A stretch of 35,783 nucleotides of DNA from a virus, in the UHGV virus genome UHGV-0117379; one strand, given 5' to 3'. The translations under genes were made by a program, and so were the position numbers. Positions 1 through 28,444 of the stretch are shown here, one piece after another. The notes under the pieces are model-generated. The model saw nothing but the letters and a program-made list of their open reading frames with translations, had not been told where the DNA came from and did no database searches. How positions within the stretch are numbered: position 1 is the first letter of the stretch; every line of letters begins with the position of its first letter.

Positions 1-49
1 ACAGTAGCAAGTATGTGTACATTTGTACATAAACCGGAAGAGGAAAATC

Positions 50-613
50 ATGGCCCGTAGACCAAACGATCCGCAGCGCCGCGAGCGCATCCTGCAGGCG
101 ACGCTGGATACCATCGCGGCGCATGGCGTCCATGCGGTAACGCACCGTAAAATCGCCACCTGCGCGAATGTGCCGCTGGGGTCACTGACCTACTATTTTA
201 GCGGCATTGAGGCGTTAATTGAGGAGGCGTTCAGCCTGTTTACTGCCGAGATGTCGGCGCACTACCAGCAAGGCTTCGTCGGGGTAACGAATCAGGAGCA
301 AGCCTGTGATGCCATTGCTGAGCTGATTTTCAGCGCCCAGGTGACCACGGCGCGTAATATGAAGCTGATGTACCAGCTGTATGCTTTTTGCAGCAGTCAG
401 CCGGCGCTGAAGGCGGTGATGCAAAACTGGATGCGGCGCAGCCAGCAGACGCTGGAGCAGTGGTTCGCCCCCGATACCGCCCGCGGTCTCGACGCCTTTA
501 TTGAAGGGATGACCTTGCACTTTGTCACCGACCGCGCGCCGCTGTCGAAGGCGGCAATCCGCATGATGGTCGGGCAGCTGGCGGGGGAGAGGGCGCAGGA
601 AGAGGGGCGCTGA
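50..613 (+). CDS. rcdA: TetR-family transcriptional regulator, RcdA/YbjK-like (host flank)
   Basis: ORF track 23..613 begins at a TTG; first ATG at 50 follows a GA-rich RBS. N-terminus [26 protein letters not shown] with a TetR-type HTH; resemblance to E. coli RcdA is from memory, not a search. GC-rich compared with the phage cargo. Confidence 0.7.
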
Positions 614-680: not shown

Positions 681-714
681 AAAACAATAAGTTAGATTAA
701 AAACAATAAGTTAG
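681..714. repeat. Two direct copies of AAAACAATAAGTTAG (681-695 and 700-714), 19-bp period, in the AT-rich region next to the integrase 3' end
   Basis: Read directly from the sequence; 15/15 identical. Could be integrase arm-type or IHF-associated sites, or host intergenic sequence. Confidence 0.45.
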
Positions 715-4967: not shown

Positions 4968-5266
4968 CAGGGGCTGTGCGTATCCATCAATTAAAAATTG
5001 CACCTAAGTATTTCAACGCTGTGGTTGCAGGTCAAAAGACGGCTGAACTTCGTAAAGACGATCGTGGCTATAAAGTTGGTGATGTTCTTTCTCTTTGCGA
5101 ATGGAAGCATGGCGTATTTACGGGTAGGGAATGGGCCGCGGTTATCTCTCATGTGCTTCCGGTTAATGACGTCATGGCAGTTTCAGAACAATGGGTGATG
5201 CTATCAATTCGCTCATTAACCCCATTAGAAGCTTTAGGATATGTTATTGCAGGAGGTGCTGTATGA
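4964..5266 (+). CDS. DUF3850/ASCH-like small protein
   Basis: ATG 4964 overlaps the previous stop (ATGA) with GGAGGTG RBS; the family assignment is from memory of the sequence pattern. Confidence 0.55.
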
Positions 5267-6120
5267 GCACCATCCTGAAATGGGCGGGTAATAAAACCAC
5301 CATTATGTCCGAACTGAAAAAATACCTTCCTGCTGGCACGCGACTGGTTGAACCTTTCGCGGGTTCTTGTGCTGTGATGATGGAGACGGATTACCCCAGC
5401 TATCTGGTTGCGGATATTAATCCTGATTTAATCAACCTCTATAAAAAGGTTGCTGCTGATTGTGAGGCGTTTATATCTCGTGCCAGAGCTTTATTTGAGG
5501 AAGCAAACAGAGAGGTGGCTTATTACAACATAAGGCAGGAGTTTAATTACTCCACTGAAATTACTGATTTCATGAAAGCGGTATATTTTCTGTATCTCAA
5601 TCGTCATGGTTACCGTGGGCTATGTCGCTATAACAAGAGCGGGTATTTCAACATTCCCTACGGTAATTATAAAAATCCGTATTTCCCTGAAAAAGAAATT
5701 CGCGCATTTGCAGAGAAAGCCCAGCGGGCAACGTTTATCTGCGCCAGCTTTGATGAAACGCTGGCGATGTTGAAGGCGGGGGATGTGGTGTATTGCGATC
5801 CGCCTTATGACGGTACGTTTTCCGGCTATCACACTGATGGCTTCACTGAAGATGACCAGTATCACCTGGCATCCGTTCTTGAACATCGATCATCTGAAGG
5901 TCATCCGGTCATTGTTTCTAACAGTGACACATCCCTGATCCGTTCGCTGTATCGCAATTTTACTCACCACTACATCAAGGCAAAACGCAGCATCGGCGTG
6001 GCAGCTGGTGAGAGTAAATCTGCAACAGAAATCATCGCTGTTTCCGGGCCGCGCTGCTGGGTAGGATTTGATCCTTCGCGTGGCGTGGATTGTTCCGTCG
6101 TGTACGGAGTGCGTGCATGA
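5263..6120 (+). CDS. dam: DNA adenine methyltransferase (Dam family, N6-adenine)
   Basis: N-terminal LKWAGNK...PFAGS AdoMet motif and catalytic DPPY motif ([10 protein letters not shown]); ATG 5263 overlaps the previous stop; AGGAGGTG RBS. Confidence 0.85.
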
Positions 6121-8531
6121 GCCATGCTGATATGAACAACTGCAGCGGCTTTAACGAGGTCGCCGCAGCATTCTCATGGAACAGCCCGAAAAAGGCCATT
6201 AACCCTTATCTGGACCCGGCGGAAGTTGCGCCGGTTTCTGCGCTTTCAAACCTGATCACTCTGTACGCTGCCGATAACGAGCAGGAACAACTGCGCCGCG
6301 AGGCACTGAGTGATCAGGTCTGGGAGCGTTATTTCTTTAATGAATCCCGTGATCCTGTCCAACGCGAAATGGAGCAGGATAAGCTAATTAGCCGGGCAAA
6401 GCTGGCGCATGAGCAGCAGCGTTTTAATCCAGACATGGCCATTCTGGCGGACGTCAACGCCCAGCCTTCCCATATCAGCAAGCCGCTGATGCAACGTATT
6501 AAATACTTCAGCAGCCTGGGCAGGCCAAAGGCTTATTCCCGCTATTTGCGTGAGACGATTAAGCCATGCCTGGAACGACTGGAGCATGTACGCGACAGTC
6601 AGCTATCCACTTCTTTTCGCTTTATGGCAAGCCATGAAGGGCTGGACGGCCTGCTGATCCTGCCTGAAATGAGTCAGGATCAGGTGAAACGCCTGTCCAC
6701 CTTGGTAGCTGCGCATATGAGCATGTGCCTTGATACAGCTTGTGGCGATTTGTATGCCACCGATGATGTTACGCCAGAAGAAATCCGCAAGACATGGGAA
6801 AAGGTGGCAGCGGAAACCCTGCGTCTGGATGTTATCCCGCCTGCGTTTGAGCAACTCCGTCGGAAAAGAAACCGCCGTAAACCCGTGCCTTATGAACTCA
6901 TTCCTGGTTCGCTGGCGCGTATGTTATGCGCCGACTGGTGGTATCGGAAATTATGGAAGATGCGTTGCGAATGGCGGGAAGAGCAGTTGCGTGCTGTTTG
7001 CCTGGTCAGCAAAAAAGCATCTCCCTATGTCAGCTATGAAGCCGTGATGCATAAACGTGAGCAGCGCCGTAAGTCGCTGGAGTTTTTCCGTTCTCATGAA
7101 CTGGTGAACGAAGACGGCGACACGCTGGATATGGAAGACGTGGTAAACGCCAGCAGCAGCAACCCTGCGCATCGCCGCAATGAGATGATGGCCTGTGTTA
7201 AAGGTCTGGAGCTTATCGCGGAAATGCGCGGTGACTGCGCCGTTTTCTACACCATCACCTGTCCGTCACGTTTCCATTCCACGCTAAATAACGGCAGGCC
7301 CAACCCGACCTGGACAAATGCGACGGTAAGACAAAGCAGTGATTATCTGGTCGGTATGTTTGCTGCATTTCGTAAGGCGATGCACAAAGCCGGATTACGC
7401 TGGTATGGCGTGCGGGTGGCTGAGCCGCATCATGACGGTACAGTTCACTGGCACCTGTTGTGTTTTATGCGCAAAAAAGATCGCCGCGCCATTACTGCTT
7501 TGTTGCGTAAGTTTGCCATTCGTGAAGACCGCGAGGAGCTGGGTAATAACACGGAACCACGCTTTAAGTCTGAGCTGATAAACCCGCGCAAAGGTACGCC
7601 AACAAGCTACATCGCGAAATACATCAGTAAGAACATTGACGGGCGTGGTCTGGCTGGCGAGATCAGCAAGGAAACGGGTAAATCCCTGCGTGATAACGCC
7701 GAATACGTTAATGCCTGGGCGTCTCTGCATCGTGTTCAGCAATTCCGCTTCTTTGGCATTCCGGGGCGTCAGGCTTACCGTGAACTGCGATTGCTGGCTG
7801 GTCAGGCGGCAAGGCAACAGGGGGACAAAAAAGCAGGTGCGCCGGTACTGGATAACCCGCGCCTTGATGCCATCCTGGCTGCCGCTGATGCTGGCTGTTT
7901 TGCCACCTACATCATGAAGCAGGGCGGCGTACTGGTTCCCCGCAAATATCACCTCATCAGAACCGCTTATGAAATCAACGAAGAGCCGACCGCCTATGGC
8001 GATCACGGTATTCGTATTTATGGCATCTGGTCACCCATTGCAGAGGGCAAGATCTGCACTCATGCGGTGAAGTGGAAAATGGTTCGTAAGGCCGTTGACA
8101 TTCAGGAGGCGGCAGCCGACCAGGGCGCTTGCGCCCCTTGGACTCGTGGCAATAACTGTCCCCTTGCTGAAAATTTGAACCAACAAGGGAAAGACAAATC
8201 AGCTGATGGGGATACCAGAACGGAGATCACCCGCATGGATGACAAGGAGTTGCACGATTACCTGCACAGTATGAGCAAAAAAGAGCGCCGGGAACTGGCA
8301 GCAAGGTTACGCCTGGTGAAACCGAAATGGCGTAAAGACTACAAACAGCGAATTACAGAGCATCAGCGTCAGCAGCTCGTCTATGAACTGAAGTCCAGAG
8401 GATTTGATGGCAGCGAGAAAGAGGTCGATCTGCTCCTTCGCGGTGGCAGTATTCCGTCAGGAGCAGGCCTGCGTATCTTCTATCGGAACCAGCGTTTGCA
8501 GGAAGATGATAAGTGGCGGAACCTGTATTAA
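6117..8531 (+). CDS. A: Replication initiation endonuclease (P2 gpA-like, rolling-circle HUH type)
   Basis: ATG 6117 overlaps the dam stop; HUH-like motif HWHLLCF and paired-tyrosine motif [10 protein letters not shown]; about 800 aa, at the P2 gpA position. Confidence 0.85.
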
Positions 8532-8684: not shown

Positions 8685-8873
8685 ATGCAGGACTATTTTT
8701 TGGAGTCTTTGAAGCTCCAGCGCATTGATTTTTTTCTTAAGCTTGTAGCGGCTAGTGAGTGTAGTGATGAAGAGAAGGGGCTGGCTTTGCAATGGGTTTC
8801 TGAACTGACAGATGAACTCATGGCAAAAATCAGAACCCACGAATACAACCGCTCAATGGATGTCATCAGCTGA
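8685..8873 (+). CDS. Hypothetical small protein (62 aa), first gene of the LexA-box unit
   Basis: ATG 8685 with AGGAGG RBS (track ORF starts upstream at 8583). Confidence 0.5.
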   Translation: MQDYFLESLKLQRIDFFLKLVAASECSDEEKGLALQWVSELTDELMAKIRTHEYNRSMDVIS

Positions 8874-8883
8874 GGTGACTTTT

Positions 8884-9117
8884 ATGCGCATTGAAATAAT
8901 GATCGATAAAGAGCAGAAGATTAGCCAGTCTACCCTGGACGCCCTTGAATCCGAGCTTTACCGCAATCTGCGCCCCCTGTATCCCAAGACGGCGATCCGC
9001 ATTCGCAAAGGCAGTGCCAACGGTATCGAGTTGACCGGCTTAAAACTTGATGAGGATAAGCAGCGGGTAATGGAAATTATGCAGCAGGTCTGGGAAGACG
9101 ACAGCTGGCTGCATTAG
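8884..9117 (+). CDS. DinI-family protein (Tum-like SOS module)
   Basis: ATG 8884 with GAGGTGA RBS; MRIEIMID...KQRVMEIMQQVWEDDSW resembles E. coli DinI (MRIEVTIAK...KQRISEILQETWE), recalled from memory. Confidence 0.75.
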   Translation: MRIEIMIDKEQKISQSTLDALESELYRNLRPLYPKTAIRIRKGSANGIELTGLKLDEDKQRVMEIMQQVWEDDSWLH

Positions 9118-9403: not shown

Positions 9404-9622
9404 ATGTCAAGTATCGCCGCATTGAAGCTGGGTAATCCAGTTGAACGTTTGGCACGGGTTCTGAAAGAGAACCAGGACAAGCTCAATCTGAGTAAAGATG
9501 GTTTTGTGTCCGTAGATTTGTCCAACGAAGAAGCTATGAAAGCCATCCGAGATCAGATGGATAAGCTTGAAGGCATCAAAACGAGCACTGTTAAAGCAAA
9601 ATATTATTACAGAACCCGATAA
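9404..9622 (+). CDS. Hypothetical small soluble protein (72 aa)
   Basis: ATG 9404 with AAGGAGGGG RBS; stop overlaps the next start (TAATG). Confidence 0.6.
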   Translation: MSSIAALKLGNPVERLARVLKENQDKLNLSKDGFVSVDLSNEEAMKAIRDQMDKLEGIKTSTVKAKYYYRTR

Positions 9623-10464
9623 TGGCAACATTACTTTTAGCAGTGATTTTGGTTAGTGGTTTTATATATGTAAACCTATCACTTTCAACACGTTATAGAT
9701 ATAAGCGTTCCAATGGCTGGGACGCTTATTTTTTTGTGGCTGCATGGGGAATTGTCTTTTTCCTCGCTGGCGGCTTCCTTACCTTCGCTCTTAACATCAG
9801 CGGTGGGTTTCGCTGGTTTTCTAATGCGCTGAATCTGACTCCAGACAGCTTTAACGGGATGTTATCCACCACAACCGATAAACCGCAGCGCATCAATGAA
9901 ATTAAGCAAATCGCGTGGGTTGTGATTTCAATAGTTCTCGCGGCGCTGTTCGGTTGGCTAAACAAACGCCGTACTTCAAAAGGGGATCGCCGTTGGGATG
10001 CACTGGCAAAGGCAGTGGGAAACAATGCTTTTGAATCGCTGCTCATGGAAGCATCAGCTCGCCAGTTTCCTATCATTGCTACACTTTCATCACGCAAAAT
10101 CTATGTAGGGCTGGTGACTTGCCCTGCGTTGGAAAATGGATTGTCGGAACACCTTGAAATTCTCCCCTTGCTGAGCGGATATCGTGATAAAGACGACCTA
10201 ACGATAAATATCACGACAAACTATCATCAGCACTATCTTGATAGCGGTGTTATCAATGGGATGTCGCGCCTGAATATCCAGGATTTCCGTGTGCTTCTCC
10301 CTAAAGATGAAGTTGAAACCATCTCGTTTTTTGATACTGAAACGTATAACAAATTTAAAGAAAACGAAGCGCGTGACCGGAAAGACTGCCGCAAGTTGGG
10401 TGGTAAAAAGCCATCCGCACGCAGGAGAAAGACTGCTGGCGACGCAGAGCAGGGTAGTGCATGA
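9622..10464 (+). CDS. Membrane protein with three predicted N-terminal TM helices, unknown function
   Basis: Hydrophobic segments LLLAVILVSGFIYV, AYFFVAAWGIVFFLAGGFLTFAL and IAWVVISIVLAALFGWL, then a roughly 170-aa soluble domain; AT-rich. Confidence 0.65.
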   Translation: MATLLLAVILVSGFIYVNLSLSTRYRYKRSNGWDAYFFVAAWGIVFFLAGGFLTFALNISGGFRWFSNALNLTPDSFNGMLSTTTDKPQRINEIKQIAWVVISIVLAALFGWLNKRRTSKGDRRWDALAKAVGNNAFESLLMEASARQFPIIATLSSRKIYVGLVTCPALENGLSEHLEILPLLSGYRDKDDLTINITTNYHQHYLDSGVINGMSRLNIQDFRVLLPKDEVETISFFDTETYNKFKENEARDRKDCRKLGGKKPSARRRKTAGDAEQGSA

Positions 10465-10512
10465 CTATGCTGCATGAATTTGCATGATCGTTTGAGGATC
10501 GTTTTAGCTCCG

Positions 10513-10537
10513 GCCCGCCAGTTCAGGCGGGCTTTTT
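10513..10537 (+). terminator. Rho-independent terminator (GCCCGC-loop-GCGGGC followed by TTTTT)
   Basis: Read directly: stem 10513-10518/10527-10532, T-run 10533-10537, about 50 nt after the membrane-protein stop. Confidence 0.6.
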
Positions 10538-10581
10538 CATATCTCATGCAGGTGCATGAAAACCACTACACAAAGCGGGCA

Positions 10582-10600
10582 GGCGTGGCGGGGATACGAG
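10582..10600. other. Putative cos cohesive-end sequence GGCGTGGCGGGGATACGAG
   Basis: First 13 nt identical to the P2/186 cohesive-end consensus GGCG(A/T)GGCGGGGAAAGCA as I remember it (15/19 to 186). Preceded by five copies of TGCATGA. Confidence 0.4.
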
Positions 10601-10665
10601 CGCGCGCTCATTACTTTTATAATTCTAGGGTTATAATACAGGGCTATCTTTCTAGGAGAAAACAC

Positions 10666-12318
10666 ATGTCCTTAGAGTTTATCAAAGAACAGTTGTCAGA
10701 TTTTATCTCATCTACAGAACCAGAAGTAATGGCTATACAGGGTGAATGGGGAATTGGTAAAACCTATACTTGGAATACGTTCCTAAAAGATAATAAAGAT
10801 AAGGTTGCATTTAATAGATATAGTTATGTCTCTCTTTTTGGTATAAATTCACTAGATTCTTTAAAGTATTCTATTTTTGAGAATGCAATTACAAAGGAAT
10901 ATATTGGAAATAAACCTGATTTGGAGACAGCAACAACAAACGCAAGTGGACTTTTTGAATCGTTTTCTCGAAAAGCCGCAGGTTTGTTAAAAGAAGCTCC
11001 TGTTGTAAAAAACTTCTCTACGACACTTGAAGCAATGTCATTTCTGACCGTTTCTAAAATGATTGTAGTAATAGATGACTTAGAAAGGCGTGGCAAAAAC
11101 TTAGATGTTAAAGATGTTTTAGGGCTAGTATCTCTATTAAAGGAGCAGAAGGATTGTAAGGTGGTTCTATTGCTTAACAATGGCACAGCTAGTATGGAGG
11201 ATTATTCTACTTATAAAGAAAAGGTCATTGATAGAGATATCACTTACAATCCAACACCAGAAGAATGCGCAGATATAGCCTATAAAGGTGATTTTCATGT
11301 TTATAACTTGTTAAGTAAATATTCCATTTCTTTAGGTATCAAGAATATTCGAATCTTAAAAAAGATAGAACGTTTTTTCGTGTCCTTAACACCAAATATT
11401 ATAGGTGATGTTGAGACAATTTCAAATGAAGTTGCGCATTCATTAACTCTGTATTGTTGGAGCCATTACGGATTTTCTCCAGAGGGAGATGTGCCATCAC
11501 TAGAATATATTAGGGGAGTGAGGAATATATATACTTATAATGACAAGGAAGAAGGCCATGAGAAAGTCTGGCTTAATACCTTGCTTAAATATGGATATAG
11601 AAAAACGAATGATCTTGATGAGGTTCTTATTGATATGGTTAGATATGGCTATCTTGATAAGAGCAGTTTCCAAAGACAAATAAGCCTAAGGAATGAGGAG
11701 ATTACGCGTGATAATAAACGAGGTTCCTTATCTGAGGCATGGCAGTTCTTTCATAATTCATTTGATGACAATCAAAATCAGGTTGTTGACAAGCTATATC
11801 AAGCGGTGGTTGATGGGATGAAGTATGTGACTCCAAGTGATTTAGATAATGTTGTCGGACTATATAGGGATTTCGGAGAGAATGCTAAGGCGAGTGAATT
11901 GATTGAACAGTTTATTAATTATGGTAACGATGCTCTAAAGGAATATGTTCAATCTATTTATGTGAATGTTCATCCCGTAAGAGATGCTGAGTTGTTGTCA
12001 AAAATTCAAGCCTATTCTAATATTATAAATATTGATGGTTCAATATATGATGTTCTTAAGAAATTATCAGGTCAGAATGGTTGGTCTGATAGACATGAGG
12101 AAATATTGGATGCTGCTTCAGTAGATGACTACTATCAATTATTTAAAAATGTCATTCTTGATGGTGGTGATTCAATAATAGCTACGGCGCTTAAATTCGG
12201 AAATTATAGTAATGGTTCTGATAGAATGAATCGTATAGGGAAAAAGGCAAGGGATGCCTTGATAAGAATTGGAGATGAATCGGCGATTAATAAAATACGT
12301 GTAAGGCGATTTTTGTGA
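10666..12318 (+). CDS. KAP-family P-loop NTPase (candidate defence cargo)
   Basis: ATG 10666 with AGGAG RBS (track ORF starts at 10474). Walker A GEWGIGKT and KAP-type Walker B VVIDDLERR; AT-rich; own TATAAT boxes (10618-10623, 10632-10637) and a downstream terminator. Confidence 0.75.
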   Translation: MSLEFIKEQLSDFISSTEPEVMAIQGEWGIGKTYTWNTFLKDNKDKVAFNRYSYVSLFGINSLDSLKYSIFENAITKEYIGNKPDLETATTNASGLFESFSRKAAGLLKEAPVVKNFSTTLEAMSFLTVSKMIVVIDDLERRGKNLDVKDVLGLVSLLKEQKDCKVVLLLNNGTASMEDYSTYKEKVIDRDITYNPTPEECADIAYKGDFHVYNLLSKYSISLGIKNIRILKKIERFFVSLTPNIIGDVETISNEVAHSLTLYCWSHYGFSPEGDVPSLEYIRGVRNIYTYNDKEEGHEKVWLNTLLKYGYRKTNDLDEVLIDMVRYGYLDKSSFQRQISLRNEEITRDNKRGSLSEAWQFFHNSFDDNQNQVVDKLYQAVVDGMKYVTPSDLDNVVGLYRDFGENAKASELIEQFINYGNDALKEYVQSIYVNVHPVRDAELLSKIQAYSNIINIDGSIYDVLKKLSGQNGWSDRHEEILDAASVDDYYQLFKNVILDGGDSIIATALKFGNYSNGSDRMNRIGKKARDALIRIGDESAINKIRVRRFL

Positions 12319-12348: not shown

Positions 12349-13377
12349 CTAATTTAATGAGTAATCATTAAATGCTATGATTTTTTCATTTAGCCAAGTA
12401 TTAATTTCTATAAGCCTTTTTTGTAACGGAATTAATTCATTTCGGACAAAGACTTTACTAGCCTTTTCCACATCCCCAAACCCCCCAACATTATTCGGCA
12501 TTATCCCCATCATTTGCGGCGGCACGCGGTGTGCCGCCATCATGTCGTCCCGGCTCACGTTCTTAATATTCAAAAACTCATCCTTCGCTGCGACCTCTGA
12601 CAACGGGATAATCTGAAGCCCGTCCTTTTTGCCGTTAGGCGAGTACATAAACAGGTTGCGGAAGTTGCCCGGACCTTTGGCGCTTTTCATCGCATTGCGG
12701 AGGTTGTTCACATCTTCCTGGTTCTGCGCGGCATCGGTCATGTACATGATGAAGCCTGCATGACTGCCGTTAATGTAATACTTCCGGCGGAACAGCGTGG
12801 CGGACTCGTTGAGCAGGGCTGACGGAATGGCAGAAAGATAACCTGGCAGGCCGTAGATCTCCTGGTTGATGTCCGGTTCCATCAGATGAAAAATGCTGCC
12901 TTTCGTGAACTGATACTGCTGGGTTGTAATACCATATTGCACAAACCAGTAGGTATCCAGGTCTAATCCGCGTCGGGTGTATTTTGCCAGCGCAGGTTCA
13001 AGGGCGATAACTTCACCGAAGCGGTTCGTGCGTTTCTCCAGGTAGGCGTTACCAAATACCAGATAGTCCTGCACAAAACGTGAAAAAGCCTGCTGGCTGA
13101 GCAGCGGGTGAGGGATATAGGTGCTGGTCAGAATATTGCACTTTACTGCAATCGGTGAGCTGTGATGCACGGCGGCGCGGAAGGCTCGCGCCAGTCCGTC
13201 AAAACTCACTGGCGGCTCATACCAGCGATCTGTCTGTACGCATTCCACATAGTCCAGTCGTTCGCGGCGATCCAGTACTGGAATGGGATCGCCGAAGCTG
13301 AATGCTTCGGCTGAAGTCTGGCTTTTATGCTGGGTCTGGTTCTGCGACGCAGCGCGGTTCTTCTTACTCTTTCCCAT
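12349..13377 (-). CDS. Q: Portal protein (P2 gpQ-like)
   Basis: 342 aa from ATG 13377 (track ORF begins at a TTG one codon earlier); size and position match P2 Q; start overlaps the P stop. Confidence 0.85.
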   Translation of the reverse strand: MGKSKKNRAASQNQTQHKSQTSAEAFSFGDPIPVLDRRERLDYVECVQTDRWYEPPVSFDGLARAFRAAVHHSSPIAVKCNILTSTYIPHPLLSQQAFSRFVQDYLVFGNAYLEKRTNRFGEVIALEPALAKYTRRGLDLDTYWFVQYGITTQQYQFTKGSIFHLMEPDINQEIYGLPGYLSAIPSALLNESATLFRRKYYINGSHAGFIMYMTDAAQNQEDVNNLRNAMKSAKGPGNFRNLFMYSPNGKKDGLQIIPLSEVAAKDEFLNIKNVSRDDMMAAHRVPPQMMGIMPNNVGGFGDVEKASKVFVRNELIPLQKRLIEINTWLNEKIIAFNDYSLN

Positions 13378-15143
13378 CAAAAAATCTCCACAATATTACT
13401 GGTATTGGCGGACTCGCCCTGCAGTGGTTCGTTAAACAGTGCGTGCATTGTTGCCCACGCCAGATCGGCGTGGCTGGTTTCTTCGCTGCGGCTGGCTTCA
13501 TACGTCGGGCGGTTGCCACTGGCGGTGGTGGCGCGACGGATTGCCATGAATGACTGCGCAATGTCGGTGTGCCCGGCGTCAAACTCCAGACGGCGGTGGC
13601 TGATAATGTCGTAGGCCTTGAGTACCAGAGCGTTTTTAACGTTGGGGTTGTAGACAAACTCCCGGACGGCAGGAAAAAACGCTTTCACGTTCTCGTAAAC
13701 CCCGTGACCGACGCCGGTTGAGTCGATACCGATGTATGTCACGTTGTACTGTTCAGTCAGTTTTTTGATGGCGTCAGCCTGGGCGCGGAAGTCCATCCCG
13801 CGCCACTGGTGACGCTCAAGAATGCGGAACTTACCGCCCGGCACGGCTGGCGGTGCCACCACCACGCACCCGGCGCTGTCGCCGTTTTGCGTACCTTTTG
13901 CCGGGTCATAACCGATCCACACTTCGCGCCAGCCAAACGGGCGCAGGGCCAGTGCATGAAAGTCGGTCCAGACTTCCCAGCTGTCCACCATGCACGCCTG
14001 CAGCTCGCTGAGCGGAAACACGGACGCGAGATCGTCCACAAACTCGCACATCAGCAGGTTCTGGTATTCGTCCGGGCTGTACTCCATGCGCAACTGGTCG
14101 AGATCGAACAGGTTACATCCGCCGCGCACAGCATCTTCCACGGTGACTATCTGGCGGTATTGCCCGTCTGCGCACAGCAGGCCGGGGGCCAGATTGCTGT
14201 GGGACAGGTCGATGTCCACCTTATCGGCTTTGTTGCGCCCACGGTTGAACAGCGCACCGGACCAGAACGGATAAGCACTGTGTGTCAGGCTGGATGGTGT
14301 GGAAAAATAGGTTTGTCGCCATTTTTTGTGAATAGCCATACCGGAAGCCACTTTGCGCAGCTCCTGGAATTTCGGTATCCAGAAATATTCATCCAGATAC
14401 AGGTTGCCGTGGTAACTCTGGGCCGTGCGGGCATTGGTGCCGAGGAAGTAAAGCGTAGCCCCGTTAGGAAGCACCATCGGATCGCCTTTCAGCTCCACTT
14501 CCACTTCTTTGGCGAAGTCGATGATGTACTGTTTAAAGACGTGGGCCTGTGCCTTACTGGCGGAAAGGAAAATCTGGTTACGTCCGGTAAGCAGGGCGTC
14601 AATCAGGGCTTCACGGGCAAAGTAAAAGGTCGCGCCGATCTGGCGTGACTTCAGCAGGTTGCGGATGCGGTTGGTTTTTCCGGCTTCCCACCAGTGGCGC
14701 TGGTAGTTGAACATGGAGGAATGGAAGATTTCTTCCAGCTTCGCAATCTGTTCATCGGTGAAAACGTTCTTTTCCGGCTGACGACGCGGGCCTTTGTTGC
14801 GGTTGGCGACGTTAGGGTTTAAGTCGGCTTCGTTGCCGCCATTGTTAAACTTGCCGATCCGCGCGTGGCGCTCCGACTGGCGCGCCAGCAGGTCAATCTC
14901 TTTGAAATCTTTCCCTTCTTTGTGCTCCTTCATGATGAGCTGGCAGTAGCGTGCGGCGGTGGTGAGCTGCATCTGATCCAGCGGCCCATAGTCACCCCAC
15001 TTGTCGCGTTTCTTCCAGCTGTGAACGGTTGCAACTTTCTCGCCCAGCATTTCAGCAATGCGGGCTACGCGATATCCCTGAAAGTACAGCAGCATGGCCT
15101 GCCGACGGGGATCGAGATCTGCGGATGTCAGTGTGGTGTTCAT
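13377..15143 (-). CDS. P: Terminase large (ATPase) subunit (P2 gpP-like)
   Basis: 588 aa, ATG 15143; immediately upstream of Q on the same strand and divergent from the O operon, as in P2. Confidence 0.85.
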   Translation of the reverse strand: MNTTLTSADLDPRRQAMLLYFQGYRVARIAEMLGEKVATVHSWKKRDKWGDYGPLDQMQLTTAARYCQLIMKEHKEGKDFKEIDLLARQSERHARIGKFNNGGNEADLNPNVANRNKGPRRQPEKNVFTDEQIAKLEEIFHSSMFNYQRHWWEAGKTNRIRNLLKSRQIGATFYFAREALIDALLTGRNQIFLSASKAQAHVFKQYIIDFAKEVEVELKGDPMVLPNGATLYFLGTNARTAQSYHGNLYLDEYFWIPKFQELRKVASGMAIHKKWRQTYFSTPSSLTHSAYPFWSGALFNRGRNKADKVDIDLSHSNLAPGLLCADGQYRQIVTVEDAVRGGCNLFDLDQLRMEYSPDEYQNLLMCEFVDDLASVFPLSELQACMVDSWEVWTDFHALALRPFGWREVWIGYDPAKGTQNGDSAGCVVVAPPAVPGGKFRILERHQWRGMDFRAQADAIKKLTEQYNVTYIGIDSTGVGHGVYENVKAFFPAVREFVYNPNVKNALVLKAYDIISHRRLEFDAGHTDIAQSFMAIRRATTASGNRPTYEASRSEETSHADLAWATMHALFNEPLQGESANTSNIVEIF

Positions 15144-17194: not shown

Positions 17195-17845
17195 ATGAGC
17201 CTGAGTCCCGCACGGCAGCATCGCCTGCGCGTTCAGGCTGAACAGGCCGCCCGCGAGGGCGGCAGTGTTCGCCACGCGTCGGGCTATGACCTGATGCTGC
17301 TGCAACTGGCGGAAGACCGCCGCCGTCTCAAGGGCGTTCAGTCCACGGTGAAAAAAGCGGAAATTAAGGTGGAGCTGCTGCCGAAGTACGCCGCCTGGGC
17401 AGAGGGTGTCCTGACTGCCGGAGGCGCACAGCAGGATGACGTGCTGATGTACGTGATGCTGTGGCGCATTGATGCCGGAGATTATGCCGGGGCGCTGGAG
17501 ATCGGGCGTCATGCCCTGCGTCATGGCTGGGTGATGCCGCTGGGTAACCGCAATGTGCAGACCGTGCTGGCAGAGGAAATGGCAGACGCGGCGCAGAGCG
17601 CAATGCTTGCCGCCACCGGCTTTGATGCCGATCTGTTGTTGCAGACGCTGGAGCTGACAGACGGTCTGGATATGCCGGACCAGTCACGAGCGCGTCTGCA
17701 TAAAGCGATTGGCGCTGTCCTGAGTGAAAGCAATCCGGCTTCTGCCCTTAACCATCTCAACCATGCGTTACAGCTCGATCCCCGCTGTGGCGTGAAAAAA
17801 GACAAACAGCAGCTGGAGCGCAGACTGCGCAATGACAGCCGCTGA
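17195..17845 (+). CDS. M: Terminase small / endonuclease subunit (P2 gpM-like)
   Basis: 216 aa following N, as in P2. Confidence 0.8.
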   Translation: MSLSPARQHRLRVQAEQAAREGGSVRHASGYDLMLLQLAEDRRRLKGVQSTVKKAEIKVELLPKYAAWAEGVLTAGGAQQDDVLMYVMLWRIDAGDYAGALEIGRHALRHGWVMPLGNRNVQTVLAEEMADAAQSAMLAATGFDADLLLQTLELTDGLDMPDQSRARLHKAIGAVLSESNPASALNHLNHALQLDPRCGVKKDKQQLERRLRNDSR

Positions 17846-20819: not shown

Positions 20820-22331
20820 ATGCGCCCCAAAATTGGTGATTTTGAATTTGGTGAGGTTTATGGAGAGAATGAGGTATTATTTCTCGATAATTACTCGAAA
20901 TATTTTTATGATATAAATAATTCATTAAGTAAACTTGATAGAAAAAATAAAATGCTCGTAATTGGCAGGAAGGGGACGGGTAAGACATTGCTTGTTAATG
21001 TCTACTGTAACGCCAAGCGAAAAAATAATTATATTGCAGTTGTGGAATCATTAAAAGATTTTGTTTTTCATGAACTTACTCACTTTCAGGGGCAGGATGT
21101 GTCTTCCACAAAATATGTACCAATTTTCAAGTGGATGATATTGGTCAATCTTGCTAAGAATATTGTAAGTAATAAAAAAGGATTTAGTGAGGATAAAATA
21201 GTTCATTTGGAAAGTTTTTTACGTTCTTTTGGCCATGTCGCGGGCGAGTTAAGGCCTGAGCAAACAGTTGAAATAACTAGGGAGTACCAAGCGTCGGGTG
21301 AGGTTGGTATCGGATTTAGATTCCCAGTATTACGTGGTGAAGCCAAAGCAAAAGATGGTGAGGTCGAGAAAACAAAAGAAACAAAAAAGAATTATTTGGA
21401 ATGTATGGAATCTTTGCAGTGTTTTATTGTTGACATGCTAAAAGAGAGTAATAAAAAAATATATGTATTTTATGATGAGTTAGATGATAAGTTTGATGCA
21501 ACAGTTGAATATAAAAATGCAATGATAAGTTTTTTAAATGCTGTTGTGTCAATTAATAAAACTCTAATGCAAAATAAAATAGATGCTAAAATTGGTGCAG
21601 TTATTCGTCATGATATAATAAATACTTTTTCATCGCCGAATATTAATAAAATCATTGAAGATAACTCTGTTACACTTGATTGGTGTTCTGCTGGAGAACG
21701 AGCAAGTGATTCTGAGATTTTTGATATGATTGCTTTTAAGATCAAAAACTCCACTGATTATTATAATGATTTAAATGGTTCTAATTTGTTCGGGAAAATT
21801 TTCACTGAGAGAGTTGCAGGTGAGCATAGCTCTATTTATATTTTACATAGAACTCTAGGTCGCCCAAGAGATGCCGTTAGGATGCTAACTTATATTCAAG
21901 ATGAATATGGAGAAAATACTGAAAGATTTGAAAGTTCCATGTTTACAAAGATTTCTAAAAAATACTCATCTTATCTTTTACGTGAAATTAGATCTGAGCT
22001 TGCGGGACATTTAAGTGATTCAGAAATAGATGACAGTTTTTCTCTTTTACGTTCAGTAAAAAAAAGAGGTTTCACTCCACATTTAATCAAGGAAAAATTT
22101 GAAGAATTGAAGTTAGGAGATGGTACATTAACGCTTAATAAAATACTGAGTTGTTTATTTAAAGTCGGTGCTATCGGGAATGTACTCAGGAGATCTAAAA
22201 CAGATGGCGGAGATGTTTATTTGTGGTCATTTAATGATGAAGATTTAGAAATGGACCCAACGTTGAATTTTGAAATACACTGTGGTTTGTGGGATGCACT
22301 AGGAATTATCAAGCCTAAACTTAGGCAATAA
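20820..22331 (+). CDS. P-loop NTPase (503 aa), candidate single-gene defence moron
   Basis: Walker A GRKGTGKT and Walker B IYVFYDELDD; AT-rich; own promoter and a perfect terminator; inserted between S and V. Confidence 0.8.
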   Translation: MRPKIGDFEFGEVYGENEVLFLDNYSKYFYDINNSLSKLDRKNKMLVIGRKGTGKTLLVNVYCNAKRKNNYIAVVESLKDFVFHELTHFQGQDVSSTKYVPIFKWMILVNLAKNIVSNKKGFSEDKIVHLESFLRSFGHVAGELRPEQTVEITREYQASGEVGIGFRFPVLRGEAKAKDGEVEKTKETKKNYLECMESLQCFIVDMLKESNKKIYVFYDELDDKFDATVEYKNAMISFLNAVVSINKTLMQNKIDAKIGAVIRHDIINTFSSPNINKIIEDNSVTLDWCSAGERASDSEIFDMIAFKIKNSTDYYNDLNGSNLFGKIFTERVAGEHSSIYILHRTLGRPRDAVRMLTYIQDEYGENTERFESSMFTKISKKYSSYLLREIRSELAGHLSDSEIDDSFSLLRSVKKRGFTPHLIKEKFEELKLGDGTLTLNKILSCLFKVGAIGNVLRRSKTDGGDVYLWSFNDEDLEMDPTLNFEIHCGLWDALGIIKPKLRQ

Positions 22332-24287: not shown

Positions 24288-24885
24288 TCTGCTGCCACCG
24301 GGTTCAACACCACTGGAGCGCCGACTGGCGCAAACCTGCAGCGGGATTTCTGATCTGCAGGTGCCGCTGCGTGACTTGTGGAATCCGGCAACCTGTCCGG
24401 TCAGTTTCCTGCCTTATCTCGCCTGGGCGTTCTCTGTGGATCGCTGGGACGAGGGCTGGACAGAAAGCGTCAAGCGCCAGGTGGTGAAGGATGCTTTTTA
24501 TATTCATCAGCATAAAGGGACCACCAGTGCCGTGCGGCGGGTGGTGGAGCCGTTCGGCTTTCTGATCCGCATTATTGAGTGGTGGCAGACCGGAGAGGCA
24601 CCGGGCACGTTTCGCCTGGATATCGGCGTGCAGGACCAGGGCATCACTGAAGATACCTATCTGGAACTTGAGCGACTGATAAGCGATGCCAAACCATGTA
24701 GCCGTCACATGATCGGCATGTCCATCAATCTGCAGACCAGCGGCCCGCATTGGGTGGGAGCCGCCAGCTATCTTGGCGAAGAAATCACGATCTATCCGTA
24801 TATCAACGAAACAATTATTTCCGGCGGCACCGCGCATGAAGGCGGGGCGGTCCATGTTATTGACACAATGAGAGTGAATCCATGA
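24280..24885 (+). CDS. I: Baseplate protein I (P2 gpI-like)
   Basis: 201 aa between J and H. Confidence 0.75.
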   Translation: MNSLLPPGSTPLERRLAQTCSGISDLQVPLRDLWNPATCPVSFLPYLAWAFSVDRWDEGWTESVKRQVVKDAFYIHQHKGTTSAVRRVVEPFGFLIRIIEWWQTGEAPGTFRLDIGVQDQGITEDTYLELERLISDAKPCSRHMIGMSINLQTSGPHWVGAASYLGEEITIYPYINETIISGGTAHEGGAVHVIDTMRVNP

Positions 24886-26435
24886 GCACAAAATTTTATA
24901 CCCTGCTGACGGATATTGGCGCGGCGAAACTTGCCAGCGCCGCCGCGCTCGGTGTGCCTTTAAAAATTACCCATATGGCGGTCGGCGATGGCGGCGGAAC
25001 ATTACCAACGCCGGACGCAAAGCAGACAGCACTGGTAAATGAGAAACGCCGGGCTGCGCTGAATATGCTCTATATCGACCCGCAGAACAGCAGCCAGATT
25101 ATTGCTGAACAGGTGATCCCTGAAAACGAGGGCGGTTGGTGGATACGTGAAGTGGGCCTGTTTGATGAGTCCGGGGCATTGATTGCCGTGGGCAACTGCC
25201 CGGAAAGCTATAAGCCGCAACTGGCTGAAGGCAGCGGGCGTACCCAGACCGTGCGTATGGTGTTGATTACCAGCAGCACGGACAATATCACCCTGAAAAT
25301 CGACCCTGCCGTAGTGCTGGCAACCCGCAAGTATGTGGATGATAAGGTACTGGAGCTGAAGGTGTACGCGGATGATCAGATGGCAAAACATCTTGCCGCA
25401 CCGGACCCGCATTCACAGTATGCACAGAAAGAAAGTCCTACGTTTACCGGGACACCCAAAGCGCCAACGCCAGCGGCGGGGAATAACACCACGCAGGTTG
25501 CGACCACCGCGTTTGTTCAGGAGGCACTGACGGCTCTTATTAATGGTGCGCCAGCCACGCTGGACACGCTGAAAGAAATAGCCGTAGCCATTAACAATGA
25601 TCCGAAATTCAGTACCACCATTAACAATGCGCTGGCACTGAAAGCGCCGCTGTCGAGTCCGGCACTCACCGGAACGCCAACAGCCCCCACGGCGGCGCAG
25701 TCGGTCAACAATACACAGATTGCCACCACGGCTTTTGTGAAATCGGCGATTGCGGCAATGGTGGGTTCTGCACCTGCGGCACTGGATACACTGAACGAAC
25801 TGGCGGCGGCGCTGGGGAATGACCCGAACTTTGCCACGACAATGCTTAATGCACTGGCAGGTAAACAACCGCTGGACAATACGCTGACTAATTTGAGTGG
25901 AAAGGATGTTGCTGGTCTTCTCGCATACCTTGGTTTGGGAGAAGGCTCTGCATTACCTGTTGGTGTCCCTGTTCCGTGGCCTTTAGCAACTCCGCCAACA
26001 GGCTGGTTGAAATGCAACGGTGCGCCATTTATCGCCTCCCAATATCCGAAGCTTGCTCTCGCTTACCCCGGTCTTTTGCTGCCAGACCTGCGCGGTGAAT
26101 TTATTCGTGGATGGGATGATGGGCGAGGGGTTGATCCAGGGCGTTCGATAGGGTCTAGCCAGGGATGGTCTCCAGGATCGCACGTCCACGGCTTGGAAAT
26201 TTGGACATCGGCTAGCGGCAGCATCCCAACTAGTACAACTGTACCATCGCAGAACGGTAGGGAGTTAGGGCCAGCAGCGACAGCAGGCGACGGCGGCGTT
26301 ATCCGATCACTTGGCGGCAGCGGCGGGACAAACAACAACTCTGCTACTTCTGTGACTACGCAGAGCCCCACCTTTGGAAACCAAGAAGGTTACCCGCGCA
26401 ACGTCGCATTTAACTATATCGTGAGGGCAGCCTGA
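24882..26435 (+). CDS. H: Tail fibre protein H; C-terminal segment lies inside the invertible region
   Basis: 517 aa at the P2 H position; crossover site at 25918-25943 lies within the coding sequence. Confidence 0.8.
   Translation: MSTKFYTLLTDIGAAKLASAAALGVPLKITHMAVGDGGGTLPTPDAKQTALVNEKRRAALNMLYIDPQNSSQIIAEQVIPENEGGWWIREVGLFDESGALIAVGNCPESYKPQLAEGSGRTQTVRMVLITSSTDNITLKIDPAVVLATRKYVDDKVLELKVYADDQMAKHLAAPDPHSQYAQKESPTFTGTPKAPTPAAGNNTTQVATTAFVQEALTALINGAPATLDTLKEIAVAINNDPKFSTTINNALALKAPLSSPALTGTPTAPTAAQSVNNTQIATTAFVKSAIAAMVGSAPAALDTLNELAAALGNDPNFATTMLNALAGKQPLDNTLTNLSGKDVAGLLAYLGLGEGSALPVGVPVPWPLATPPTGWLKCNGAPFIASQYPKLALAYPGLLLPDLRGEFIRGWDDGRGVDPGRSIGSSQGWSPGSHVHGLEIWTSASGSIPTSTTVPSQNGRELGPAATAGDGGVIRSLGGSGGTNNNSATSVTTQSPTFGNQEGYPRNVAFNYIVRAA
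25918..25943. repeat. Invertase crossover site (hix/gix-like, left), inside H
   Basis: TTCTCGCATACCTTGGTTTGGGAGAA; its 3' 14 nt are the exact reverse complement of part of the right site; central dinucleotide TT. Confidence 0.6.
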
Positions 26436-27037
26436 TGAATAAAGCCGTATTAAATAGCGAACTCATTACTACAAAGGCAGGAAACATTACCGTTTATAAT
26501 TTTGATGCTGAGACGAAGGAATATCTTTCCACATCAACCGAATACCTTGCTGTGGGTGTCGGTATTCCGGCGTATTCATGCTTAGATGCACCAGGTACAC
26601 ATAAAGCCGGTTATGCAATCTGCCGCTCTGCAGATTTTAACTCATGGGAATATGTGCCAGACCATCGCGGTGAAATCATCTATAGCACCGAAACAGGAGA
26701 ATCGAAAGAAATCACATCTCTGGGTGATTACCCTGAAAATACAACCACTATCGCCCCGTTAACGCCATATGATAAATGGGATGGTGAGAAATGGGTGACG
26801 GATACTGAGGCACAGCATAGCGCCGCAGTAGAAGCGGCAGAAGCACAGCGCCAGTCACTGATTGATGCAGCAATGTCTTCCATCAGTCTGATTCAACTGA
26901 AATTACAGGCCGGACGGAAGCTGACGCAGGCAGAAACAACCCGACTTAACGCTGTGCTGGATTATATTGACGCGGTGACGGCAACAGATACCAGCACCGC
27001 GCCTGATGTCATCTGGCCTGAACTGCCGGAGGCGTAG
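26435..27037 (+). CDS. G: Tail fibre assembly protein (P2 gpG-like)
   Basis: 200 aa immediately after H; start overlaps the H stop. Confidence 0.75.
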   Translation: MNKAVLNSELITTKAGNITVYNFDAETKEYLSTSTEYLAVGVGIPAYSCLDAPGTHKAGYAICRSADFNSWEYVPDHRGEIIYSTETGESKEITSLGDYPENTTTIAPLTPYDKWDGEKWVTDTEAQHSAAVEAAEAQRQSLIDAAMSSISLIQLKLQAGRKLTQAETTRLNAVLDYIDAVTATDTSTAPDVIWPELPEA

Positions 27038-27449
27038 GCCATTCAATATCTGGCGCACCGGAAGTATCGACCAGTTCCAGTGCGTCCAGATAATCCAGCC
27101 ACAAATTATATTGCACCAGTTCCTCACCTTTCAGGCGACCAATCGCCGCTTTACCAGGCCATTGCTTACTGTTTATGTATTCGTTGACCTGATTAATCAA
27201 TTGCTGCTTTTTCAGTTCGGCTGCGGCAATTTGTTCCTCATGAGTTGGCGGTGGAATATCAATCCATGCAGGCATTCCGTCGATGACACCTCTGTATTTT
27301 CCTTCTGGTGCTTCCTTCATAAATTCGGCAGCAACAGTGTCGTCAATTTCGATTCCATCATCGGGCCATTCGCCGGATTCCTGATAAGCGATTTTAAGCT
27401 CCACAGGGAAAAACGCATTTTTATCGGCACTGAAAATATATTTCTGCAT
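27009..27449 (-). CDS. Alternative tail fibre assembly protein (inverted orientation)
   Basis: 146 aa, convergent with and overlapping G by 29 nt; C-terminus VDTSGAPDIEWP parallels the G C-terminus TDTSTAPDVIWP. Confidence 0.7.
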   Translation of the reverse strand: MQKYIFSADKNAFFPVELKIAYQESGEWPDDGIEIDDTVAAEFMKEAPEGKYRGVIDGMPAWIDIPPPTHEEQIAAAELKKQQLINQVNEYINSKQWPGKAAIGRLKGEELVQYNLWLDYLDALELVDTSGAPDIEWPTPPAVQAR

Positions 27450-27451
27450 TT

Positions 27452-27811
27452 CTACCGTCCTATCGAAATATAACTGAATCTGTATTGCTGTGAGATATCA
27501 CTGGTTGCCACACGCCACGCTGAATTACTGATATGTTCAAAATTTACAGACAAAACCTGCGGGGCAGGAATCGACGGGTCTGACTGAACGGCATCAGACA
27601 TAACACTGACTGAAACCATCGGCTGATTAGGGAATGGTATAGGGAAGTGTCCACTGATAAAGCGGGTCGTGTTTCCTGAAAAAGTGCCAAACTGAACAAT
27701 ATATCCACCTGGTAGCCTGAACCATCCCGAACCAGAAGCGAATGCTCCCATATCCGGTATCTGATTATCTCCTGTGCCCACATCCCTTTTCGCCGCTTCT
27801 CCCAAACCAAC
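27452..27811 (-). CDS. Alternative tail-fibre C-terminal cassette (promoterless; fuses to H after inversion)
   Basis: Minus-strand frame shares GLGE with H at the crossover and is in the same codon phase relative to the central TT/AA dinucleotide; track ORF 27452..27850 adds a spurious N-terminus. Confidence 0.6.
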   Translation of the reverse strand, partial: VGLGEAAKRDVGTGDNQIPDMGAFASGSGWFRLPGGYIVQFGTFSGNTTRFISGHFPIPFPNQPMVSVSVMSDAVQSDPSIPAPQVLSVNFEHISNSAWRVATSDISQQYRFSYISIGR

Positions 27812-27822
27812 GTTTAAGAAAA
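27797..27822. repeat. Invertase crossover site (hix/gix-like, right), next to the invertase gene
   Basis: TTCTCCCAAACCAACGTTTAAGAAAA resembles the Hin/Gin 26-bp site as I remember it (TTCTTGAAAACCAAGGTTTTTGATAA); central AA. Confidence 0.6.
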
Positions 27823-27877
27823 TGCAGAGGTAACAGCTAACTGGCATCATCTCCGGTTTTTATTCAGGGGGATGATC

Positions 27878-28444
27878 ATGCTTATTGGCTATGTACGCGT
27901 GTCAACAAATGACCAGAACACCGATTTGCAACGTAATGCACTGAACTGCGCGGGATGTGAGCGGATTTTTGAGGACAAAATCAGTGGCACTAAGTCCGAC
28001 AGACCGGGGCTGAAAAAACTACTCAGGACACTATCGGCAGGAGACACGCTGGTTGTCTGGAAGCTGGACAGGTTGGGGCGCAGTATGCGGCATCTTGTTA
28101 CGCTGATAGAAGAGTTGCGCCAGCGTGGTGTGAATTTCAGAAGCCTGACTGACAGTATTGATACCAGTACCCCAATGGGCCGTTTCTTTTTTCATGTCAT
28201 GGGTGCCCTAGCTGAAATGGAACGCGAACTGATAGTTGAACGTACCAGGGCGGGGCTGGCTGCAGCTCGTGATAAAGGCAGAGTAGGTGGACGCCGTCCT
28301 AAGTTGACCACCGAACAGTGGGCACAGATTGGACGCTTACTCGAGGCCGGAGAATCAAGACAGCGTATTGCACTGATTTTTGATGTGGGTGTTTCCACAA
28401 TTTATAGAAAATTTCCGGCAAATAAGAGTAATGAATCCCCCTGA
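27878..28444 (+). CDS. Serine recombinase DNA invertase (Hin/Gin/Cin/Pin family)
   Basis: MLIGYVRVSTNDQNTDLQRNAL... is near-identical in pattern to the Gin/Hin N-terminus including the catalytic Ser region; ATG 27878 preferred over 27872 on RBS spacing. Confidence 0.9.
   Translation: MLIGYVRVSTNDQNTDLQRNALNCAGCERIFEDKISGTKSDRPGLKKLLRTLSAGDTLVVWKLDRLGRSMRHLVTLIEELRQRGVNFRSLTDSIDTSTPMGRFFFHVMGALAEMERELIVERTRAGLAAARDKGRVGGRRPKLTTEQWAQIGRLLEAGESRQRIALIFDVGVSTIYRKFPANKSNESP

Follow-up and report, generated by a model that had tools for sequence, protein, structure and literature searches.

A predicted P2-family cos site with position-conserved upstream YGCAT boxes in a Fels-2-like prophage

The region 10456-10607 of the 35,783-nucleotide stretch of DNA analysed here (UHGV virus genome UHGV-0117379, hereafter the window) is very probably a P2-family cos site that would be recognised through a compact core together with a set of boxes lying further upstream, and this is the explanation that best accounts for the evidence as a whole. 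Homology identifies it as an ordinary packaging site of a prophage of the P2/Fels-2 type, with the predicted cohesive end at 10582-10600; the P2-family cos is itself an already known and already annotated kind of element. Worth keeping, beyond the identification, are the family-wide, position-locked YGCAT boxes outside the 55-bp core and a pair of GATC sites that is specific to one lineage. In what follows, positions carrying a sign are counted from the predicted top-strand nick, placed between 10581 and 10582; the features are collected in Table 1.

Table 1. Features of the cos region and of its gene context in the window; signed positions are relative to the predicted top-strand nick.
Feature	Position	Strand	Remarks
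Host TetR-family gene	23-613
Integrase	736-1944	-
CI repressor	2184-2840	-
Dam-type methylase	5191-6120		phage-encoded
Replication protein gpA	6090-8531
DinI	8812-9117
280-aa ORF of unknown function	9622-10464		upstream of cos
Conserved cos unit	10456-10607	+	-126 to +26; conservation in 35 same-subtype IMG/VR loci, BLAST
Distal box 3	10458-10464	+	TGCATGA, YGCAT at -124; overlaps TGA stop of the 280-aa ORF
Distal box 2	10471-10477	+	YGCAT at -111
Distal box 1	10481-10487	+	YGCAT at -101
Two GATCGTTT repeats	10486-10504	+	11 bp apart, starts at 10486 and 10497; GATC at -96 and -85
GC-rich hairpin with T run	10512-10538	+	intrinsic-terminator-like for rightward transcripts; inverted repeat centred at -59.5
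Inverted box	10544-10550	-	TCATGCA, ATGCA at -36
55-bp cos core	10553-10607	+	proximal box (-29) to GCGCGC (+21 to +26)
Predicted 19-nt 5'-protruding cohesive end	10582-10600	+	GGCGTGGCGGGGATACGAG; by homology
KAP-family P-loop NTPase, 553 aa	10657-12318	+	Pfam KAP_NTPase, PADLOC PDC-S49
Portal protein, P2 gpQ homologue	12349-13380	-	Pfam Phage_portal
Terminase large subunit, P2 gpP homologue	13377-15143	-	Pfam Terminase_5, Terminase_6N, Terminase_6C
Scaffold and capsid genes			after the terminase large subunit
Terminase small subunit, P2 gpM homologue	17195-17845	+	Pfam Phage_term_smal (PF05944), E 5e-40
Tail genes			after gpM

The cos core and its predicted ends

The G+C-rich 19-mer GGCGTGGCGGGGATACGAG has the family form GGCG(A/T)GGCGGGG... 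and can be aligned gap-free with the cohesive ends, also 19 nt long, that are annotated for P2, 186, PSP3 and P4. By this homology the nicks are predicted at 10581|10582 on the top strand and at 10600|10601 on the bottom strand. The anchored, gap-free alignment of the window with these four elements spans about -38 to +26, the identity to P2, P4 and 186 being 71-76% over -38 to -1 and 77-81% over +1 to +26 and dropping to 15-43% when the spacer and the flanks further out are compared; for what lies beyond the aligned stretch the range is 15-35%. The records of 186 and PSP3 begin with GGCGTGGCGGGGAAAGCAT, annotated as cohesive ends, that of P2 begins with GGCGAGGCGGGGAAAGCAC, annotated as cosL, and the start of the P4 record is P2-like. 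A preliminary description of this DNA had given the 13-mer GGCGTGGCGGGGA, whose sole exact match in the window is at 10582, as the beginning of the P2/186 cohesive end; this proved exact for 186 (13/13, as for PSP3) but not for P2 (12/13, as for P4). Its tentative assignment of a cos end is upheld by the gap-free alignment, by the identity of the 19-mer with the annotated cos of Salmonella phage SEN8, and by the P2-like gene context. Within the overhang, a difference is found at positions 14-19, where the window reads ATACGAG and 186 and P2 read AAAGCAT and AAAGCAC, respectively.

The published 55-bp cos core, which two later papers (PMC3931495, PMC5694545) attribute to Ziermann and Calendar 1990, fits the segment 10553-10607, of which the proximal box forms the first 5 bp. 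The G+C-rich word GCGSGC stands right before each predicted nick, with AGCGGGCA^GGCG on the top strand and AGCGCGCG^CTCG on the bottom strand (^ marking the predicted nick), which gives the surroundings of the cut a partial two-fold symmetry. A scan of IMG/VR for GGGCRGGCGWGGCGGGG yielded 119 cos loci, and the GCGCGC at +21 to +26, which was no part of the search pattern, is strongly conserved among them.

The gene order of the window (gpA, DinI, the 280-aa ORF, cos, the KAP cargo gene, and then Q and P, both on the minus strand) places the site at the P2 map position, i.e. with the accessory genes of the gpA side before it and, after it, the genes of the portal and the terminase in antisense orientation. 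A cognate terminase of the P2 type is encoded on the same element, as gpP with its Terminase_5, 6N and 6C domains and gpM with its PF05944 domain. Taken together, the window apparently holds a complete prophage of the P2 family (Fels-2-like, Peduoviridae), the source of which is probably Klebsiella. The cos sites of P2, 186, PSP3 and P4 share with the site in the window the map place and orientation, the distances of the boxes and the GCGCGC at +21 to +26.

According to BLAST searches, 56 phage records of GenBank carry the block 10454-10611 with an identity of 86-100%, and 37 more carry part of it (93 in total), mostly from Peduoviridae of Klebsiella, Yersinia, Salmonella and Escherichia. The 'putative cos site' annotated in the SEN8 record (NC_047753) is identical to GGCGTGGCGGGGATACGAG at 19 of 19 positions; on the right that record stops at the very base that corresponds to 10581, and on the left it opens with the same 19-mer. 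This site was annotated by homology, from the sequence (PMC5427200), and within the searchable literature the exact 19-mer occurs in the SEN8 announcement only. The record of Escherichia phage Cartapus (OV696611) carries a 59-bp 'putative cos site' (1..59) that corresponds to -32 to +27 of the window and so agrees in extent with the 55-bp core. The annotation of the Cartapus site is likewise based on homology, in this case to the cos of P2. SEN8 and Cartapus have in common with the window not only the 19-mer but a near-identical block from -126 to +26, the GATCGTTT pair included, and differ from it in that some of their boxes read CGCAT and not TGCAT. Among the 119 IMG/VR loci the 19-mer of the window defines the commonest subtype of cos (the ATACGAG subtype, 35 loci). 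A precise position for cos defines where the packaged genome begins and ends and how its genes are ordered.

YGCAT boxes at fixed distances from the cut

All coordinates given in the preliminary description for five copies of TGCATGA upstream of the putative end, four of them direct (10458, 10471, 10481 and 10553) and one inverted (10544), are exact. Over the window as a whole the heptamer occurs 10 times against 8.8 expected, so that it is not over-represented; five of these ten copies, however, fall within 102 bp and form the densest heptamer cluster of the window, and five copies of any heptamer within 102 bp arose in 1 of 200 dinucleotide-preserving shuffles. As judged from the aligned loci, the conserved unit is the pentamer YGCAT rather than TGCATGA, and several Fels-2-like phages have CGCAT instead of TGCAT at some of the boxes.

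Across the 119 loci, YGCAT is found at -124 in 63% (75 loci), at -111 in 76% (91), at -101 in 81% (96) and at -29 in 97% (115), whereas in the flanks its frequency is 0.25% per position. The number of loci with every one of the four boxes precisely in place is 71, and 91 have three or more in place. The same four positions are occupied in P4, in 186 and in the window. In P2 and PSP3 the outermost box is shifted, to -123 (by 1 bp) and to -120 (by 4 bp), respectively, and the other three are in the same place. The inverted copy is conserved as ATGCR at -36 in 68% of the 119 loci and is present in 186, PSP3 and Fels-2-like phages and absent from P2 and P4. Between lineages the conservation is confined to two islands, -126 to -97 (50-83% identity) and -38 to +26, which are separated by a spacer of about 58 bp whose identity is at the random level in comparisons with P2 (17-26%) and whose length is invariant. 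A short word is present in several copies, all on the same side of the nick site, with constant spacings that are conserved among relatives. As to helical phasing, these spacings are not clean multiples of 10.5 bp.

The distal triplet is outside the published 55-bp core, at the edge of which lies the proximal box. It is retained by the satellites: in all seven P4-like satellites among the loci, identified by a homologue of Psu, the four boxes are at their exact positions. P2 and P4 are said, in PMC9122126 and PMC9594776, to share cos only, and the P2/P4 cosmid papers quote the 55-bp cos as the only homology between the two; in the present comparison three more boxes, 100-125 bp upstream, hold their positions in phages as well as in satellites. 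The triplet is not universal in the family, since, for any one of the distal positions, 10-14% of the 119 loci lack a YGCAT at a distance of up to 6 bp and since other repeats are found in Aeromonas phage LPM4, which has three GGATC words where the distal YGCAT boxes would be, and in phage phiCTX (see below). A P2-like phage of Ralstonia keeps YGCAT at -110, -100 and -29.

From their positional conservation and their retention in P4 satellites, the boxes can reasonably be taken to be putative binding sites of the terminase. They could be bound by gpM or by the N-terminus of gpP, which carries the HTH-like Terminase_5 domain and a weak Sigma70_r4_2/HTH match at residues 13-46. In the searchable literature, to which the primary cos paper of 1990 does not belong, no paper combines TGCAT with a P2-like cos, and no footprint, EMSA or other binding data are reported there for gpM or gpP on the boxes.

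This silence of the literature on binding by the terminase counts in favour of a different reading, which accepts the cos and supposes that the boxes are the target of a phage regulator or a host nucleoid protein, or that neighbouring accessory genes use them as promoter elements. It draws some weight from P2, in which the region of the outermost box overlaps a plausible -35 element of the leftward old-tin promoter; the annotation puts the starts of its transcript at 149-151 bp upstream of cos. The distance of the boxes is constant, however, with respect to the cut site and to no gene, and the flanking genes are wholly different in P2 (old), P4 (psu), 186 (orf97), SEN8 and the window. Moreover, the P4 satellites have only cos in common with their helpers (PMC9122126) and yet all keep the boxes. 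Such a non-terminase role is for these reasons considered unlikely.

It is very unlikely that the site is the inactive relic of a cryptic prophage, frequent as the decay of prophages is. The collection does contain an example of a decayed cos of this very subtype, locus L017, which has a mutated core and in which neither the boxes nor the two GATC sites are left. In the window, on the other hand, the subtype consensus is preserved at every conserved position, the cos block shows, over 154 bp, 100% identity with its counterpart in Klebsiella phage ST15-OXA48phi14.1, and the phage gene set, comprising integrase, CI, gpA, portal protein, both terminase subunits, tail and gpD-like ORFs, is free of obvious truncation. 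The comparison is also of practical use: the four YGCAT boxes and the core give prophage annotation a simple signature by which intact cos sites are found and decayed ones set apart.

It is hardly credible that coding sequence, or chance, produced the heptamers as a side effect: TGCATGA does contain both ATG and TGA, one copy supplying the stop of the 280-aa ORF and another the start of an ORF (10474-12318) that is open across the whole region, and GenBank records annotate small hypothetical CDSs over the same block, but the region holds a terminator and the cos core, alignments of the KAP family fit a start at 10657 with an AGGAG upstream, conservation between lineages is limited to the boxes with a spacer at the random level, which is not the pattern of a coding sequence, and a cluster of this size was seen in a single shuffle of the 200. 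Decisive against chance are the conservation of the block in relatives and the equal distance of the boxes from the cut in distant ones.

A two-module model and comparison with other packaging sites

P2 packages circular monomers. In the model that we favour, the terminase of the prophage, composed of gpM and gpP, would recognise the region of about 150 bp after replication and would nick the top strand at 10581|10582 and the bottom strand at 10600|10601, the product being a linear genome whose 5' ends protrude by 19 nt with the sequence GGCGTGGCGGGGATACGAG, upon which packaging would follow. Recognition would require two modules, the 55-bp core (10553-10607) with its proximal YGCAT box and a distal module made of the three YGCAT boxes, which lie 72, 82 and 95 bp further upstream of the proximal one. 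The spacer between them is free in sequence and fixed in length, which points to a single protein assembly that touches both modules across bent or looped DNA, in the manner in which the lambda terminase uses the R sites of cosB.

The cos of lambda consists of cosQ, cosN and cosB, with R sites for gpNu1 and the IHF site I1. Its likeness to the site in the window lies in a staggered nick, a partial two-fold symmetry and short repeats at fixed spacing on one side; the two have no sequence similarity, the overhang is 12 nt long in lambda and 19 nt in the window, and in the window, unlike in lambda, the repeats lie towards the right end of the mature genome. The analogy is also incomplete because the spacer of the window has no IHF-consensus site, a search with the consensus WATCARNNNNTTR at up to 1 mismatch having returned no match inside 10454-10610.

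A cos site homologous in its nick-site core (GGCGTGGCGGGG...GCGCGC) is found in phage phiCTX (NC_003278), the record of which annotates 21-nt cosL and cosR, the repeats R3-R6 and IHF sites, and which has the ctx toxin gene beside cosL. Like the window, phiCTX has short repeats upstream of the nick site and cargo right after the left end. It differs in that its repeats are CGCAGAAAG-like in place of YGCAT, and in its annotated IHF sites, where the cos block of the window has no match to the consensus.

An experimental hint that the flanks have a function comes from P4 cosmids, of which those with longer cos flanks were transduced more than 1000-fold better than a short-cos cosmid (PMC9594776). 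The three distal boxes may be the explanation of why longer cos fragments are packaged so much better.

Compared with P2, the spacer of which is unrelated in sequence, the lineage of the window has added two elements between the modules, a pair of GATC sites and a terminator hairpin. The two GATCGTTT copies with Dam sites that had been noted earlier were indeed found, at 10486 and 10497. GATC is present at both -96 and -85 in 33 of the 35 loci of the ATACGAG subtype and in 47 of all 119, as well as in half of a sister subtype, and the pair is absent from P2, P4, 186 and PSP3. By these comparisons, the pair is an addition specific to the Fels-2-like lineage, within which only GATC is strongly conserved, the GATC cores being kept more strictly than the GTTT tails of GATCGTTT.

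Cleavage at the pac site of P1 depends on Dam methylation. The window resembles that system in having GATC inside its putative packaging-recognition region and in belonging to a phage with a Dam-type methylase of its own, and differs from it in that there are two GATC sites only, located 85-96 bp from the cut and specific to the lineage. A phage Dam gene accompanies the GATC pair in 12 of 16 loci and is found in 3 of 23 loci that lack the pair; these counts are real but confounded by shared ancestry, and the association is for that reason not used here as evidence. The full reading, according to which the distal triplet with its fixed-length spacer is a second terminase module that P4 satellites must copy and the GATC pair in addition couples packaging to the phage Dam methylase in a P1 pac-like fashion, is quite unlikely to hold in both its parts. 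The part that concerns the second module, taken by itself and with no coupling to Dam, is considerably more likely, and may already be contained in the 1990 paper.

The hairpin (stem-loop 10512-10533) has an 8-bp stem with 7 G-C pairs and a T5 tail, and was scored as an intrinsic terminator of rightward transcription. Inverted repeats rich in GC, with their centre at -60 +/- 1, are present in 49 of the 119 loci and, with different sequences, in P4, 186 and PSP3. P2 has none, so that the element cannot be essential for the P2 terminase, and the terminator hairpin is best described as another lineage-specific addition, which probably halts read-through from the upstream accessory operon. A scan with Rfam from 10000 to 11000 (E<=1) returned two matches at chance level only and no known RNA element.

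The cargo slot between cos and the portal gene

The conservation of the cos block ends at +26, and from +27 on the window continues as an AT-rich cassette with a promoter-like GGGTTATAAT, in which the ATG of the KAP gene is at +76. The GC content of the gene is about 0.33, in comparison with about 0.52 for the backbone. A sigma-70 promoter scan of 10200-10800 returned no promoter, the TATAAT-like words before the KAP gene being below the criteria. As had been anticipated in the preliminary description on the condition that the site is cos, the linear genome would begin with the gene of the KAP NTPase, which follows from the P2 map convention and the predicted left end. The longer ORF 10474-12318 was considered as an N-terminally extended version of the KAP protein and rejected, as the Pfam and PHROG alignments set in at residues 4-11 of the shorter, 553-aa form that starts at 10657.

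The same junction between cos and cassette is found in two further loci (L039 and L135), the KAP proteins of which are 78% identical, and KAP homologues occupy the same slot in these two and in the decayed locus L017. In contrast to P2 and 186, in which cos is followed by about 170 bp before the terminator of the portal gene, cargo in the window begins directly after +26. Cargo at this place is common: in 47 of 76 loci cos and the portal gene are more than 245 bp apart, and in the others about 200 bp. Both the position between cosL and Q and the wider interval from gpA to gpQ are published hotspots (PMC5694545, PMC9122126, PMC13586616). The KAP NTPase is to be viewed as a candidate defence gene in the cargo slot between cos and portal, carried on a cassette that starts 27 bp from the cut. 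SEN8 and Cartapus also have cargo in this slot, although of another kind: where the window has the KAP NTPase, SEN8 encodes a hypothetical protein and an HNH endonuclease, and Cartapus a DUF4145 protein. Elsewhere, the slot holds a SEFIR-domain protein in ST15-OXA48phi14.1, an ATPase together with an RloB-domain protein in ST13-OXA48phi12.1, and a 566-aa protein in Fels-2.

Proposed recognition repeats and other elements upstream of the cut

At the place where the window has its distal YGCAT boxes, the Aeromonas phage LPM4 (L140) differs in carrying GGATC, at -127, -108 and -96 from the predicted cut, while phiCTX (loci L141 and L142) has CGCAGAAAG-like repeats together with annotated IHF sites. 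Because these two phages carry other words at this place, the sequence comparison suggests that recognition repeats in the Peduoviridae are lineage-specific, with a conserved nick-site core beside them.

Centred at -59.5 from the cut, about halfway from the distal to the proximal boxes, lies a GC-rich inverted repeat, which is present in 49 of the 119 sampled IMG/VR cos loci with differing sequences, often GCCAGnnCTGGC-like. P4, 186 and PSP3 likewise have such a repeat there; P2 does not. A terminator, a bend and a protein site are candidate roles for it.

Also in the cos spacer is a conserved pair of GATC sites at a spacing of 11 bp. A Dam gene accompanies the pair in 12 of 16 related loci, versus 3 of the 23 loci without it, the lineages in this comparison not being independent.

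Locations of the features discussed (window coordinates unless a compared locus is named)
Feature	Location	Strand	Remark
AAAACAATAAGTTAG pair	681-714		
D12-class Dam-type methylase gene	5191-6120		overlaps start of gpA
GATC pair	10486-10504		
GC-rich inverted repeat	10513-10532		
KAP NTPase cassette	10608-12318		
503-aa protein gene, second AT-rich island	20820-22331		GC about 0.30-0.34 vs about 0.52
Tail-fibre region	24882-28444		
H-like fibre and tail-fibre assembly genes	within 24882-28444	+	
Second tail-fibre assembly gene and fibre C-terminal segment	27009-27850	-	
Hin-type serine invertase gene	27872-28444		after the - strand fibre segment
CDS over cos	L005 5175-5384		MK433578 9099..9308
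CDS over cos	L006 3021-3164		PP599993 29937..30080
CDS over cos	L015 3019-3189		MK422453 30992..31162

Decay of cos and gene calls across it

An example of an inactive cos is provided by the IMG/VR contig IMGVR_UViG_3300011921_000023 (L017), a decayed copy of the window's cos subtype. Mutations there affect the GCGCGC core, the pair of GATC sites, and the inverted as well as the distal boxes; downstream of this cos comes a KAP homologue (42% identical). In the GenBank records of related phages, small CDSs annotated as "hypothetical protein" span the cut site together with the cos boxes; the three tabulated are probably false gene calls.

Cargo and possible cargo genes, tail fibres and the prophage boundary

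The AT-rich KAP cassette meets the backbone at exactly +27 from the cut, and two IMG/VR loci (L039 and L135) share this junction. The protein it encodes, a KAP-family NTPase, has matches to PDC-S49 (E 3e-28), listed as a defence candidate in PADLOC, and to phrog_4740; among GenBank phages no close homologue was found, the best being 27% identical.

The 503-aa protein, whose gene is flanked by P2 S-like and V-like tail genes, in the classical orf30 slot, has no Pfam match and is assigned to phrog_13260, labelled by PHROG as of unknown function; it may represent a further cargo or defence gene. The tail-fibre region appears to be invertible.

AAAACAATAAGTTAG occurs twice in direct orientation, at a spacing of 19 bp, in the stretch that separates the TetR-family gene of the host from the 3' end of the integrase gene. 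These copies probably represent IHF-type sites or part of an attachment-site arm at the edge of the prophage.
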